A stretch of DNA of 34,830 bases from Chlamydiales bacterium. Lineage in GTDB: Bacteria > Chlamydiota > Chlamydiia > Chlamydiales > JAACFD01. The stretch covers positions 1 through 34,830 of the forward strand of contig JAACFD010000001.1 of assembly GCA_009937555.1 (NCBI GenBank). Direction: 5' to 3'. This document shows, in pieces, positions 8,028 through 14,899 of this stretch. The stretch's first letter is position 1. Every line of letters begins with the position of its first letter. The notes below the pieces were generated by a model. That model did not search any database and was not told where the DNA came from. It saw only the letters and a program-made list of their open reading frames with translations. Both the position numbers and the translations under genes were made by a program.

Positions 8028-11000
8028 TCAGACTAGGAAACCTTTGGTTTTAGAATAGTTGTAAGCCCTTGATAAAAGGACAAATACTTTTTTAACTGAG
8101 TGGTAACAAGCAAGACTTGAAGAAGCAACTAGTGAAACCCTCCACAAAAATTGTGGTAATCCTCTTATAACGCAGCCGCTTACATAAGTAATTCTTTTTC
8201 TAAATCTAGCATAATAAGAATCAAGTGAACTGTAGTACAGCACTTCATCTCTACCCATTGGCAGACCTATTACAGGAGCTAATAGAAGCTCTTTAGCTTC
8301 TTGTAGACTTGCTGTAGTTGAAAGCCTCTTCTCTAAGTCCACAAGCCTTTCAATTGAGTAACCATAGCGGTTAGTTAACTGCAAATATAGATCTAAGAAT
8401 GACTCTCTTAAAATTTTCCTGGATAAGGCCCTCTCCATATGAAACCTGAGCTCCTCTTTGTCTACATCATGAAGAAAGAAATTCTCCCCCTCTTTACCTG
8501 TAGCCACAGCCCTTTCAGACTCTACTGAAGGCTCATTAACTACTGGCTGCAGTAGGTTTGCTAAACCTGAGGCTATATTAGCTCCTATTCCATTTTGCAC
8601 TAATGGAGCGCCAAGCAAACTACCTACTAATCCAGCAATACCTGTAGCTGCAGAAGCTCTGCTGGAGTGTAAAACATCTCTCTCTTCTGGCCGCCTATGC
8701 ATCACTAGAAATACCCCCTCTGCTTGCTTATCATCAGCCTGAAGGTTTTTAATATATTGAAGAAGGTGAGACCTCATCATTTCTCCTCCACCAGCTGGTA
8801 ATATTAAAACTACCCTTTTTCCAAGCTCTTGTGACTTTTGAAGCACTTTGTTTATTTCTTGCTGTAGCAGCTCTACTTTTACTCTTCTAATAAAAGGCCA
8901 TTGCTGAATCTCATTAATATTTATGCGGAATACGGCATAGTTTGAGTTTACACTCAAATAATCTTGGAGTTGACTAAGAAAGATATCAGCACGGCTCGCT
9001 GATTTCTCTAAAAGAGCAAACACACCGCTAGATAAGCGTCTATCTAGTTTTTGTAGCCATGTACTAAAGTAACTTGAGTAATTCGCACATAAAGGATAGT
9101 GCCTTTCAGGGCCAATGGGTGATGAAGGAGTTAGTGTTTGAAGCTCTCTTGCTGGAGCAGAAAGCTGAGGTTTAGAAGAAGAGAAATAACGCACTACTGT
9201 TAACTGAATATCTGCTCCTGTTTCAGCAGCTTCTTCTATAAATAGATTAACAATTGTAAAGGCACTGTCAACTGTTAGGTGAAGCCCTCCGTGGTAAAGA
9301 CCAAAAAAAAGCATCCTTTCCACTGTATCTGATGAATGCCCTTTTAAAGCGACATAATGCTTCAAAAACGCAACTATATTTTTATAACTAGCCTCTGCAT
9401 CGAGTAGCACTCCTGTGTATACATCCGGGATATAAGGCCTTTTTTTTGAACAAAAAATCACATTAATATCCTTTTCAGAAACTTCTTTTAATAAGCCTAG
9501 TAAAGCATCTAAACTTTTCAATTTAGGAACATCTGGAGGTAATGCACTTCTACCTATAAGTGTTGACTGAGCTTCAGCTCCTAGATCTCCTAGCCTCTTT
9601 CTAAACGAGTCTATAATTCTTCCATCAACTAATCTTGCTACCCGACTTTGGATACTTGAAAACAGACTATCAACATCTTCCCCATCTTCAACATGTTCGA
9701 CAGCATCTCTAGACAGGCTAGCATTTATAGCTTCGCAGCCTTCAAAAATTAAAACAGACCTTGTTTTTTTCTCTATTTCAGAAATTAAGCCACCAAGATA
9801 TGTTAATAGACTTTCCCTTTCCCTGTTAGAACGACTTGATAATAGAGATCTCGTTAATTGTGACAAGTTAACTCTATAAACTGTGTGACCTAATGCCCCC
9901 GCTGTTAAGGCGTGATCTAAAACATTATTTAAAACGCCACTCACATTTGCTATTGAAAAGGAAGGTCTTTTAAAACCTGTTTGCTTAATAGCATCACTTA
10001 CATGCCTTACTACTCCTGAAAATAATTGATCTTGCGCGTATAGATTATGCGCCAATATTTCTACTTCTTCCTCAGAAGGCTTTATAACTTTGCAGGCAAG
10101 CTCAAATACCGAACGAGTCTCCGAAATGTCATGAAATTGTTCCCAGAAATCATCTAAAAAAGACTGTTTTGTATTTCTATTTACCCATAAACTCAACCTT
10201 GGATTTGTTTCGGCTAAATGCCAAAAATAATCAATTACATGTGATAAATTAAAACCTTCATCAGAACCTTTATGGCGAATGCTTTCACGATAAAACACAC
10301 TTAACTCTTGAAAAAAACTGACAGATTTAGCAGGAAAGTTTCCCGGTAAATGCCTAGAAAAGTAGCAAATAGCTCTAGCAATTACTTTTATCCTTTCATT
10401 CTCAGACTCATAGCGACCCCGTTCTACTCCCATAAGTTCTTGTGCAATGTTAAGACCTGAAGACTTAATTTCTTCTGCTAGTATAGTGCTTGCCTCTTCA
10501 ACTGACATTTCAGGAACTCTAATCCTCTTAATACGCCTCTCTAGATCGGGGTCTTCACTAAATATTCTACCCACTAAGGAAAAATCTGTACTAGTCCCAA
10601 TAATTCTTACTCTACTATCCCCTAAAACTGTTTTAAAATCTGAGAAAAAACTACTATGACCTTCTAGAAGTAATTGTAGTTCATCAATTACTAGAATATA
10701 GCGACCAGACTGATTGATTTTAGTAATAATCCTGTCAAAAGAGCACTCCTCCCCTCCGTGAATAATTGCTCTAAACTGGCGAGCTAAACCAGCTTTATCT
10801 GTTTTAAGGTCTCTTATAACTAGTCGAACAAATTTATAGTCATGTAATGGGTGTTTTGGGTCAATAGCTGCTTGAAGAGCAATATGATCTACCAGTGAAG
10901 TTTTACCTGCGCCCGAAACCCCCTCTAAAATAGCACTCGCAGTATCAGATTTAGCAAGAGTAGCGGTTACAACTGTTTCCATATCTTTGCGGCCGTAAAA

Positions 11001-14400: not shown

Positions 14401-14899
14401 CTAGGGAAGTCTTCCCTGCACCAGACTCTCCCTCTATGAGAGCGCTGGCTGAGTCTGATTTAGCTAGAACTGTTAATAGAGCCATTTCAATATTTTCCCG
14501 TCTTGTATAAGAAGGTAGTTCTCTAGCTTTAGCTCTAGCTACAACATCTGAAGTCAAATCAATACAAAACTTAGGTAAGGAGCTCTCTTTAGCTAATTTT
14601 TTTGCGTGTTTCTCAGCTGCATCAAGTTTAGCTCTTTCATCTGGGCTAAGCTCTGAAGCAAGTGCTCTATATGCCACTCTCTTTAGGACATCATCTGATG
14701 TTCCTAGCGACCCTTTAGTCACTCTAGCAAGTATTTTACCCGTGTATGGTGATGCTACGTACCACATAAAGGTTAAACTAGTAATTGCCCCCGTTACTTG
14801 AGGGATTGCGCTAACAGCCTGGGATACGCCGCCTAGAACCCAGCAAATATTACTTGGATTTATTGATTGAACAAAAGCATTTAAATAACTCATTATCAA
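11453..14899 (-). CDS. Large membrane-associated AAA+ protein, paralog 2: same architecture as 8028..11372
   Basis: 1148 aa. Two-lobed N-terminal hydrophobic region ICWVLGGVSQAVSAIPQVTGAITSLTFMWYVA. FCIDLT..., Walker A GESGAGKTS (14405-14431), Walker B LILVLDELQ, IIGTTTD and IRRFERIYVPT are present. C-terminal YYYCSYDSFYARFRRR box plus hydrophobic tail. The track start at 14899 is TTG; the likely real start is ATG 14893 (MSYLNAF...), 6 nt after the SD AAGGAA. ATPase module approx. 13835-14578. Confidence 0.8.
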   Translation of the reverse strand: MIMSYLNAFVQSINPSNICWVLGGVSQAVSAIPQVTGAITSLTFMWYVASPYTGKILARVTKGSLGTSDDVLKRVAYRALASELSPDERAKLDAAEKHAKKLAKESSLPKFCIDLTSDVVARAKARELPSYTRRENIEMALLTVLAKSDSASALIEGESGAGKTSLVDYLALQAALNPDHELHGYRFVRLCVRDFKTDKKGFQKQINAFMHGGEAACFADIINKINQQGNLILVLDELQLLVGGHHNFFTDFKTILSEGRVRIIGTTTDGRLLNQLFNSDSDQIRRFERIYVPTLDQEGASKLVYDQLVRLKLPVIPHARLIGDGSNTSELAEVVQYTKRLADAICYFSDSLPGVFPAKASSFLQRLHTYYATKRKEAQGRGIDNLPLILEHVVELYEIILSTSGNNLKITKKASKAEMLANFQMNFVDYARIDQDFKLICKQKEIEFEAGPSPTLSGLFDAELDSIALSLDKSGTYLSPKQFFSISNFNQIFYSDLLESLKPLSKEGATGCLSINLENLSKFLQAGRSEEEVVVVLSKLSEKLKEFKSRDGSLIIFRGSEVLQGINTEPEVTESTSQLSSRPTSISSLCSNDLLHQAGMMVQTIAEPLSSMGLVAPELPDNFSLGTQMGSKAPENKRCKEESSQDEKYQKYLQVVYLLVKSLNGSNVILCSSGNKALVIDEVKTSYIDTSLSYHSIYELLKKAAQRHGLRESIANDIVFYGLYHGGENFNADQAYTVFRRALVTFDEIGENVPVQQLVADELSSTKTFIEATSQDITVMEESVASSDPLLESASYQSLVCQLKRSMNDSRATYFELKEPCAVRAAKFFAALKNDLLQEDTLVFDLNLRSVMSKRFTSPTKVKLLKQGLEFMLKKAQSQSLPAVIIIDPASSDADIDNFLKLFKLFGESYAEGESPEIQVVFRKKPRYKPVKTANGPASGEEGLSALQQLALKSVQKTAIGAAASTFASTVLSGEKVKGEETEDAVGAEDESEFFNLSQIERGEMQALIEEGMNKQKMKWPSLLNLYVQLYNEKKCTIEDILKLEKVVCKKSSYKEAVAYLSPGKVDMHKDDVYYYCSYDSFYARFRRRVSGAANYLASNWASIMWKVGTVASTAMTSYYVFSKCCDVARKFSFLGKTGVDFISKFRK

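Follow-up and report, generated by a model that had tools for sequence, protein, structure and literature searches.

Fast-evolving Clp-derived AAA+ paralogs, probably with two degenerate AAA-like modules per chain, in an uncultured chlamydial lineage

Introduction

What kind of machine is encoded by two adjacent genes of more than 1100 codons each, with a single recognisable ATPase domain per chain, in a chlamydial genome? The genes lie on the minus strand of contig JAACFD010000001.1 of a Chlamydiales bacterium (assembly GCA_009937555.1), within a stretch of 34,830 nucleotides that we call the window. We refer to the downstream gene as A and to the upstream one as B. The original prediction described their products as a two-component pair of membrane-tethered, single-ring AAA+ proteins. 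The explanation that we favour, by a narrow preference, is that A and B are old paralogs of a clade-specific, fast-evolving and autonomous family of remodelling ATPases derived from Clp/Hsp100, with a putative function that possibly lies at the host interface.

An old pair of paralogs

Gene A (8028..11372, minus strand) is an open reading frame (ORF) of 1114 amino acids (aa), a length shared by the contig's own gene call (P0132). Its ATG at 11372 is preceded by an AAGGGG ribosome-binding site. The NCBI annotation of A starts at M131, and the resulting protein of 984 aa cuts into the ATPase domain and drops the conserved pre-Walker region. For gene B (11453..14893, minus strand), the mechanical ORF extends to a TTG at 14899 and gives the 1148 aa initially proposed; this length needs correction, whereas that of A stands. 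Two codons inside the TTG, at 14893, an ATG follows an AAGGA ribosome-binding site. Since the B ortholog (P0002) and the NCBI copy begin with 'MSY...' and the contig's own gene call (P0131, 1146 aa) uses the same methionine, B almost certainly starts at this ATG and has 1146 aa.

The two genes are indeed adjacent paralogs on the same strand. Their products are 31% identical over 1073 aligned residues (BLASTP, E = 1e-134), and the 80-nt spacer between them (11373..11452, minus strand) has no terminator-like site on its sense strand and is kept in a relative that lacks A. Eight motifs picked out earlier (FCIDLT, G.SGAGKTS, ILV[IL]DELQ, IIGT[ST]TD, [EI]RR[IF], FPAK[SA].SF, [FY]GLYHGG and Y.(S/C)..DS[YF]YARFR[KR]R) each occur once per protein. 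In the ATPase cores we reproduced the 76 identities over 118 ungapped positions and the third-position differences in 7 of the 10 SGAGKTSLVD codons. The synonymous sites of the two cores are saturated (proportion of synonymous differences, pS, of 0.75). This saturation and the deletion scar in the relative, described below, support an old duplication, as had been suspected. The base composition of the region equals that of its flanks. Promoter and terminator scans gave counts at or near the level of shuffled sequences, and hence say little on the co-transcription of A and B. The terminator scan flagged, on the plus strand, an inverted repeat of 16 pairs (6 G-C) with an 8-nt loop at 11238-11277, within A codons ~32-45 and ~95-135 nt past the A start codon.

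A Clp D1-type ATPase module in each chain

We then asked to which AAA+ lineage the ATPase domain belongs. Pfam gave just generic P-loop/AAA matches at residues ~120-310. The top NCBIfam models were ClpA, ClpV, ClpB, ClpG and ClpK, at 20-45 bits against cut-offs of ~900-1900 (the best, ClpA, has E = 4e-12 and 45 bits for a cut-off of 993). A sequence search of the PDB retrieved nucleotide-binding domain 1 (NBD1) of ClpB, Hsp104, ClpA and ClpC, with E-values down to 5e-7 (ClpB NBD1). Finally, hhalign matched the family of four members (A, B, the B ortholog and P0009, a protein from a third genome) to a profile of 9 Clp sequences with a probability of 98.5% and E = 2e-15. The alignment covers residues 102-370 and spans both the large domain and the small (lid) domain of D1. 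It places the pre-D1 linker LPKFCIDLT opposite L.qys.n of the Clp profile, and the FPAK[SA].SF island opposite the D1-lid motif LPDKAIDL (FPAKASSFLQ opposite LPDKAIDLIDEA). About 650 residues after the ATPase had been left unassigned by the original prediction; the first ~100 of them are the Clp D1 lid, while the rest has no Pfam or PDB sequence match.

In B, the live module with its lid occupies 13670..14596 (minus strand, aa 100-408) and shows LPKFCIDLT, Walker A GESGAGKT (aa 155), Walker B ILVLDE (aa 230), sensor-1 IIGTTTD, the Arg pair IRRF and the lid motif FPAKASSF. Its counterpart in A lies at 10188..11087 (minus strand, aa 96-395), with Walker A GVSGAGKT (aa 151), Walker B ILVIDE (aa 226), IIGTSTD, ERRI and FPAKSVSF. 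In all four members the chain has a single P-loop and a single conserved Walker B. The catalytic motifs are invariant among them at ~30% identity: Walker A and B, sensor-1 and the Arg-finger pair that serves hydrolysis between subunits. Judged by these motifs, each chain has one catalytically competent AAA+ module of the Clp D1 type, complete with lid, and the earlier assignment to Clp/Hsp100 D1 is supported by NCBIfam, PDB and hhalign alike.

The remaining hallmarks of Clp proteins were searched for in turn. Pfam gave no match to Clp_N at E <= 1, and none to AAA_2 or ClpB_D2-small; there is no second P-loop in any chain. The [IL]G[FLM] tripeptide of the ClpP-docking loop is absent from B, its ortholog and P0009, and none is conserved in A. 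This agrees with the expectation that a Clp N-domain, a sequence-detectable second ring and a conserved IGF-type loop would be missing. Since they lack the N-domain, a D2 and the ClpP loop and score below the curated cut-offs, A and B are best described as derived from Clp and not as Clp members. The position of the pore-loop-1 tyrosine (KYRGEFE) is taken by an invariant Gln according to HMMER and by M/I/F/L according to hhalign; the loop aligns poorly. At the candidate positions no aromatic is conserved across the four members, within an alignment that is itself uncertain in the loop. The lack of a conserved canonical pore-loop tyrosine makes processive threading in the Clp manner doubtful.

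A marginal match of A to Pfam nSTAND1 (27.8 bits for a gathering score of 27.1), also precomputed for P0009, raises another reading: STAND-like or other conflict-defence NTPases. In such proteins the NTPase would be central, between an effector at the N-terminus that perturbs membranes and a long, fast-evolving sensor at the C-terminus. The pace of evolution and the turnover of genes would fit this reading. However, the match to Clp D1 is far stronger and extends over the L..F..DLT linker, the Arg-finger pair and the lid motif of D1, and B has no nSTAND1 match. PADLOC gives only a weak, P-loop-level match to mad8 (E = 9e-4), the locus is fixed among housekeeping genes in three genomes with no defence island, and the C-terminal region looks AAA-like and unlike a repeat sensor. 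We thus judge a STAND-like identity very unlikely.

Two further AAA-like modules predicted after the lid

The bulk of each chain lies beyond this domain. For residues 296 to the end of A, B and P0009, Pfam at E <= 10 gave only sub-threshold SNF2_assoc and OAM_alpha, and a profile search of the PDB gave PAN2 at E = 1.4 and nothing else. An AlphaFold model of A aa 330-1114, computed from the four-sequence alignment, has a mean predicted local distance difference test (pLDDT) of 55.6, with folded blocks at 60-85. It contains two successive beta-alpha-beta cores, each with five strands in AAA+ order and, after them, a helical bundle (about four helices); both units are broken by long inserts of low confidence. 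Compared with the PDB by Foldseek, the model gave 297 matches at E <= 1e-3. The top ones are p97/VCP/Cdc48, AFG2/DRG1 and 55LCC, with E = 6e-9 over ~700 alignment columns. The query was without the recognised ATPase core and included the second half of its lid alone. AlphaFold of full-length B (three sequences) reached a pLDDT of 41, with even the ATPase domain not resolved. This poor model independently matches AFG2, Cdc48, ATAD2, NSF and Yta7, which we take as a weak cross-check only.

When the alignment is read with the model, the hydrophobic runs that had attracted attention in the sequence fall at defined places. LIIFRGSE / VLIFEGCE would be strand 3 of the second module, at the former Walker B position; VILCSS / VIFCSK would be strand 4 of the same module, at the former sensor-1 position; and AVIIIDPA / VVLILPAG would be strand 3 of the third module. 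A junction between strand 5 and lid, hhF.L/P...E..I, closes each module in the sequence. The early suggestion that these runs are degenerate repeats without a P-loop fits the AlphaFold and Foldseek results. The live module is thus probably followed by two more AAA-like modules that have lost all nucleotide-binding motifs, forming a triple-module chain. We put this no higher than probable because it comes from a single model of moderate confidence and has no support from profile searches. On this reading, the description of A and B as single-ring proteins gives way to chains that probably hold three AAA-like modules. The order that we propose is an N-terminal region, the live Clp-D1 module with its lid, a helical linker, two predicted dead AAA-like modules and a conserved C-terminal tail.

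The predicted second module of A (9186..9962, minus strand, aa 471-729) has a pLDDT of ~60-78 outside an insert at aa 554-615. The boundaries in B (12614..13453, minus strand, aa 481-760) were transferred from the model of A by alignment. They enclose the putative strands FFSIS, CLSIN, LIIFR, NVILC and SYID and then a helical lid containing YGLYHGG, with a low-confidence insert at aa 567-641. The predicted third module lies at 8283..9077 in A (minus strand, aa 766-1030; low-confidence insert at aa 895-968) and at 11717..12511 in B (minus strand, aa 795-1059). In B its strands would be YFELK, LVFD, AVII and IQVVFRK, its lid would begin at FFNLSQIERGEM, and a Gly/Ala-rich and acidic patch (aa 924-996) forms the low-confidence insert. 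The chains end in a tail, at 8031..8282 in A (minus strand, aa 1031-1114), with the YYSSLDSYYARFRKR box, and at 11456..11716 in B (minus strand, aa 1060-1146), with the YYCSYDSFYARFRRR box and terminal amphipathic helices rich in small residues. In B, the conservation of this tail is second only to that of the ATPase.

Two more specific ideas on the origin of these modules were tried and rejected. A search for internal repeats, in which six sub-alignments were compared pairwise by hhalign, gave probabilities of at most 1.2%. By eye, the third module resembles a decayed Clp D2 (YFELKEPCAVRA... / LPAVIIIDPASSD... / IQVVFRK). The profile of 9 Clp sequences aligned with the first module alone, and the sole alignment to Clp D2 is also that of the first module, at a probability of 18%.

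Hydrophobic termini and the membrane question

The original prediction placed both proteins in the membrane and called the N-terminus of one of them Inc-like. We compared the candidate segments with proteins of the same window using two simple scales, Kyte-Doolittle hydropathy in 19-residue windows (KD19; classical threshold 1.6) and the summed Hessa scale. The membrane controls were ExbB, ExbD, an SDF transporter, a hypothetical protein with 11 hydropathy peaks and the neighbouring transmembrane (TM)/coiled-coil/LysM protein; they give KD19 of ~1.9-2.6 and summed Hessa values of ~-3 to +2. The soluble glucose-6-phosphate isomerase (PGI) of the window reaches a KD19 of 1.41. The KD19 values at the N-terminus, Gly/Ala patch and C-terminus are 1.22, 0.87 and 0.83 in B; 1.27, 1.06 and 0.95 in its ortholog; 1.46, 1.57 and 1.14 in A; and 1.69, 1.10 and 1.13 in P0009. 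Across the family, the summed Hessa values of these segments range from +3 to +11.

The N-terminal regions themselves, ~100 aa long, do not align between A and B. That of B (14597..14893, minus strand, aa 1-99) starts with a weakly hydrophobic stretch of two lobes, which jointly cover ~32 residues, and continues with helices; its first 50 aa are rich in Ser, Ala and Gly and have no charged residue. That of A (11088..11372, minus strand, aa 1-95) has a single hydrophobic stretch rich in Ala, Gly and Ser at aa 7-25. The Gly/Ala-rich patch of A (aa 907-925), its highest peak, sits inside the insert of the third module. Hydrophobic segments are therefore present as described, yet they are weak (maxima of 0.8-1.7 against 1.9-2.6 for bona fide membrane proteins). 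They fall below the membrane helices of the window on both scales, and on these scales the family does not look integral-membrane or Inc-like.

The membrane view had been more ambitious than this. It would make A and B integral-membrane unfoldases of a single ring, Inc-like or FtsH/Msp1-like, anchored at both ends and forming a two-component machine on the envelope or inclusion membrane. Stretches that are hydrophobic and rich in small residues do occur at both ends of all four members, and the N-termini of P0009 and A come closest to what is needed. The two genes share a strand across a spacer free of terminator-like sites, and their divergent neighbours encode the TM/coiled-coil/LysM protein and TolQ/TolR-like envelope proteins. 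But the termini of B (KD19 of 0.8-1.2, Hessa of +6 to +8) are in the range of soluble proteins of the window, its lobes are short for two membrane crossings, and the Gly/Ala patch is placed in a low-confidence insert within a folded module. The probable presence of three AAA-like modules speaks against a single ring. The partnership fares no better: the closest relative has lost A and the third genome has a single copy, so the paralogs do not always occur together, and B must already work without A in the relative. The original prediction had itself named the absence of one copy from close relatives as an argument against a two-component system. Taken together, this makes the membrane-anchored, two-component machine distinctly unlikely.

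Distribution and history of the locus

A word-indexed search of 5.8 billion clusters returned the window organism and one Logan contig with a 65% identical B ortholog, and nothing else. In NCBI, the window organism is represented by the metagenome-assembled genome 'Chlamydiales bacterium', with entries MCH1429771.1 and MCH1429774.1. A hidden Markov model search with an 847-column profile of the non-ATPase part against 1.84 billion representative proteins made one addition, P0009, a protein of 1128 aa on a 129.6-kb Joint Genome Institute (JGI) contig. Within that search, the family is seen in three genomes only: the window organism, its close relative L001 and the JGI contig. Among 185,579 GTDB species representatives there was no member; the scan picked up only ordinary Clp-like genes, from Patescibacteria and Firmicutes. 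JGI metagenome contigs, scanned with a pattern, gave none either, and there was no ortholog of A in the protein collection searched. A separate observation concerns the Clp-like ORFs of L002, L003, L004, L006, L008 and L009 (Patescibacteria/Saccharibacteria). They have 628-856 aa and one GxxGxGK[TS], at the D2 position, and keep a Walker-B-like motif in D1. From the sequences, their D1 P-loop may be degenerate.

Between the window and the JGI genome, PGI shares 61% identity, and no other chlamydial PGI exceeds 48% identity to the window protein. On this basis, the three genomes belong to one deep chlamydial clade that is poorly sampled. They share one gene order: queF, exbD, exbB, the TM/coiled-coil/LysM gene, the divergent AAA gene or genes, trmB, a gene of 359 aa and pgi. 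In a Parachlamydiales genome, exbD-exbB directly adjoins trmB-pgi, with no AAA gene. We interpret the AAA family, from this adjacency, as a clade-specific insertion in an older syntenic block. The contig of the nearest outgroup has no AAA gene upstream of trmB in the ~960 nt available. The divergent upstream neighbour of the pair (15213-16808, plus strand) encodes 531 aa with one strong N-terminal TM helix, a long coiled-coil-like region rich in Gln, Glu and Lys, and a C-terminal LysM. It adjoins exbB/exbD in 3/3 clade genomes and is absent from that position in the Parachlamydiales genome, which makes it a clade-specific insertion as well. The 359-aa ORF between trmB and pgi (6127-7206, minus strand) has no Pfam match and shares 4 nt with trmB. 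Its copy in the relative is 96% identical, and the gene also occurs in the third genome and on the nearest outgroup contig (352-359 aa); Parachlamydiales lack it at this position. Elsewhere in the window, the ORFs at 24521-25825, 27304-28014, 28107-29510, 30799-33108 and 33217-33948 (236-769 aa) have no Pfam match at E <= 0.001; the one at 28107-29510 has 11 hydropathy peaks and that of 769 aa has two.

Copy number varies within the clade. Two of the three genomes have a single copy: L001 has B alone, and the JGI contig one copy. L001 keeps the spacer, the ribosome-binding site of A and a decayed version of the first ~60 nt of A (the ATG is lost and there is a 1-nt indel), joined straight to the sequence ~20 nt downstream of the A stop. 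The segment missing from it corresponds to ~3.3 kb of the window (8008..11315, minus strand), from about codon 19 of A to ~20 nt past its stop, with approximate breakpoints. This clean deletion scar indicates that A was ancestral to both genomes and is dispensable. A T7A8 palindrome (GATTTTTTTAAAAAAAAG) lies just past the A stop, at ~7980-8007 of the window. It is kept in L001 at ~13585-13610, immediately 3' of the deletion junction. P0009 may be an ortholog of either A or B: the three proteins are mutually equidistant, at 30-31% identity, which favours neither, and the duplication may predate or follow the split from the third genome.

Rate of evolution

We compared the genes of the window with those of its close relative. 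B is 66% identical between the two, with a non-synonymous divergence (dN) of 0.22 and a ratio of non-synonymous to synonymous divergence (dN/dS) of 0.29. The 15 neighbouring genes are 80-98% identical (13/15 above 92%) and have dN/dS of 0.01-0.08, so that the value of B is ~4-25 times theirs. The most diverged ordinary neighbour is a gene with an SRAP domain (23174-23839; 1059-1724 in L001), at 80% identity and a synonymous divergence (dS) of 1.49; its divergence is still well below that of B. Yet no region of B has a dN/dS as high as 1. The ATPase core has 0.17 and the C-terminal tail 0.13, while the first 60 residues reach 0.46 and the insert of the second module 0.52. The N-terminal region is among the least constrained parts. 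By these codon comparisons, B evolves under purifying selection and many times faster than its surroundings.

Could the genes be decaying relics, under relaxed selection and without current function? The rate of B, the loss of A in the relative and a frameshift in the NCBI assembly might be read that way. In that assembly, which comes from essentially the same organism, an A7 run in B (11746..11752, minus strand, codons KK-S) is A8. The change shortens B to 1052 aa (...CKKKLI*), with a separate tail ORF of 81 aa (P0010). The A7/A8 difference may stem from slipped-strand variation or from an error of assembly. On the other side, both ORFs of the window are intact over more than 1100 codons, the catalytic motifs are invariant in four proteins at ~30% identity, and the ATPase core and C-tail are as constrained as given above. 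It is hardly credible that these genes are relics.

Discussion

The observations are best brought together, in our view and by the slight preference stated at the outset, by a family of Clp-derived remodelling ATPases in which each paralog acts autonomously. Each would assemble alone into a ring through its Arg-finger interfaces, an arrangement that the Arg fingers of the first module would allow. Hydrolysis of ATP by the one live tier would then drive the remodelling or extraction of a partner protein. The weakly hydrophobic termini, rich in small residues, would more readily be peripheral helices that bind membranes or partners, or a secretion signal, than classical TM anchors. The rapid evolution, clade restriction and copy-number turnover suggest a role at the interface between host and bacterium, either secreted or associated with the envelope or inclusion, and not in core proteostasis.

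Several points weigh against this explanation. The Foldseek TM-scores of the A model are ~0.2, presumably because the domain orientations in the model are off. The extra modules come from one model built on a four-sequence alignment, and hhalign detects no profile-profile likeness among the three modules or to Clp D2. The classical hydropathy threshold is reached by one segment in one member, the N-terminus of P0009 (1.69), and the N-terminus of A is borderline (summed Hessa of +3.3); a peripheral or post-secretion association with membranes may occur. The rapid evolution of B could mean relaxed constraint and not conflict. Finally, the host-interface role is one that we infer from evolutionary pattern.

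A stronger version of the host-interface idea is that A and B are type III-secreted effectors. Their N-termini, poor in charges and rich in Ser, Thr and Asn, would be the signal, their helices would insert in a host membrane after translocation, and the ATPase would remodel a protein or membrane complex of the host. The idea has its host-interface part in common with the explanation that we favour and claims more. The first 30 aa have few charged residues (0 in B and P0009, 1 in the B ortholog and 3 in A), and Ser, Thr, Asn and Gln make up 27-37% of them in the four members. Secreted membrane proteins also tend toward sub-threshold hydrophobicity, and the fast evolution, the restriction to one clade and the changing copy number would suit an effector. 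However, this N-terminal composition, while compatible with a type III secretion signal, is unspecific. No chaperone gene adjoins the pair in the window, and we know of no precedent for a secreted AAA+ unfoldase. We therefore regard secreted effectors as unlikely. Bolder still, the proteins might define a new class of AAA+ machine, in which a Clp-derived live tier sits on two dead tiers, or in which a dimer closes a pseudo-hexamer of 2 x 3 modules; it would be secreted into a eukaryotic host, with its termini inserted in a membrane of the host or the inclusion and its ATPase extracting or remodelling some host factor. Such a secreted version would be the first secreted AAA+ effector of the unfoldase type, and we consider it a long shot.

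If the reading of A and B as Clp-derived remodelling ATPases holds, a Clp/Hsp100 motor has been rebuilt as one live and two dead AAA-like modules, with evolution quick enough to erase the sequence trace of the dead ones. This would be a useful case for the study of AAA+ evolution. The model of A would also be an instance of structure prediction bringing to light domains that escape profile searches. For chlamydial biology, the family is a candidate host-interaction factor, being clade-specific, rapidly diverging, partly dispensable and inserted in a conserved block. Its practical reach is limited, as it is known from three uncultured genomes.

Comparison with known systems

From their sequences, no characterised family combines the features of A and B. 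This bears out the earlier impression of an uncharacterised architecture, as Pfam, NCBIfam, PADLOC and PDB sequence searches recognise the ATPase alone. A full-text search of the literature turned up no account of a chlamydial AAA+ family like this one. With STAND proteins (nSTAND1) they have in common a P-loop NTPase and, behind it, a long and variable C-terminal part, and A has its marginal Pfam match. Unlike STAND proteins, they fit the Clp D1 motifs and lid better and have neither a repeat-type sensor nor a defence-island context. Inc proteins are defined by a long, strongly hydrophobic bilobed domain. A and B resemble them in being chlamydial, lineage-specific and fast-evolving, and B and its ortholog have two lobes near the N-terminus; yet the lobes of B are ~32 residues at a KD19 of ~1.2 and the N-terminus of A is single-lobed. 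FtsH, Msp1/ATAD1 and Bcs1 are membrane-anchored AAA+ proteins with clear transmembrane helices, and like A and B they have a single live AAA+ module after an N-terminal hydrophobic segment. In contrast to them, A and B have a hydropathy below the threshold in most members and lack a protease domain, and their sequences are related to these proteins through the AAA+ fold only.

The likeness to Clp/Hsp100 (ClpA, ClpB/Hsp104, ClpC and ClpV/TssH) is that of D1: L..F..DLT, Walker A GxxGxGKT, Walker B hhhhDE, sensor-1 GTT, the Arg pair RR and, in the small domain, LPDKA for the FPAKA of the family. Unlike these proteins, A and B have no N-domain, M-domain, sequence-recognisable D2, conserved ClpP-docking tripeptide or conserved pore-loop tyrosine. 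They score ~20-fold under the family cut-offs, carry ~750 extra residues of unique sequence and occur in three genomes only.

The body that follows the lid points elsewhere, to tandem AAA+ proteins. The D1-D2 bodies of NSF, ATAD2/Yta7, Pex1/Pex6, p97/Cdc48 and AFG2 match the post-lid model of A (E-values down to 6e-9), and they match the model of B too. The defining arrangement of at least two consecutive alpha/beta-plus-lid modules is found in A at the fold level only (pLDDT of 55.6, TM-score of ~0.2). The extra modules of A and B differ in having no sequence similarity to these proteins, and their live module is of the Clp D1 type and comes first, followed by two predicted dead ones, which would make three. 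What is common to both is the principle of live and dead AAA modules in one chain. In NSF, ATAD2/Yta7 and Pex1/6, degenerate modules serve as a scaffold for oligomerisation or substrate binding, and the plan of one live plus two dead modules in A and B would be comparable in principle.

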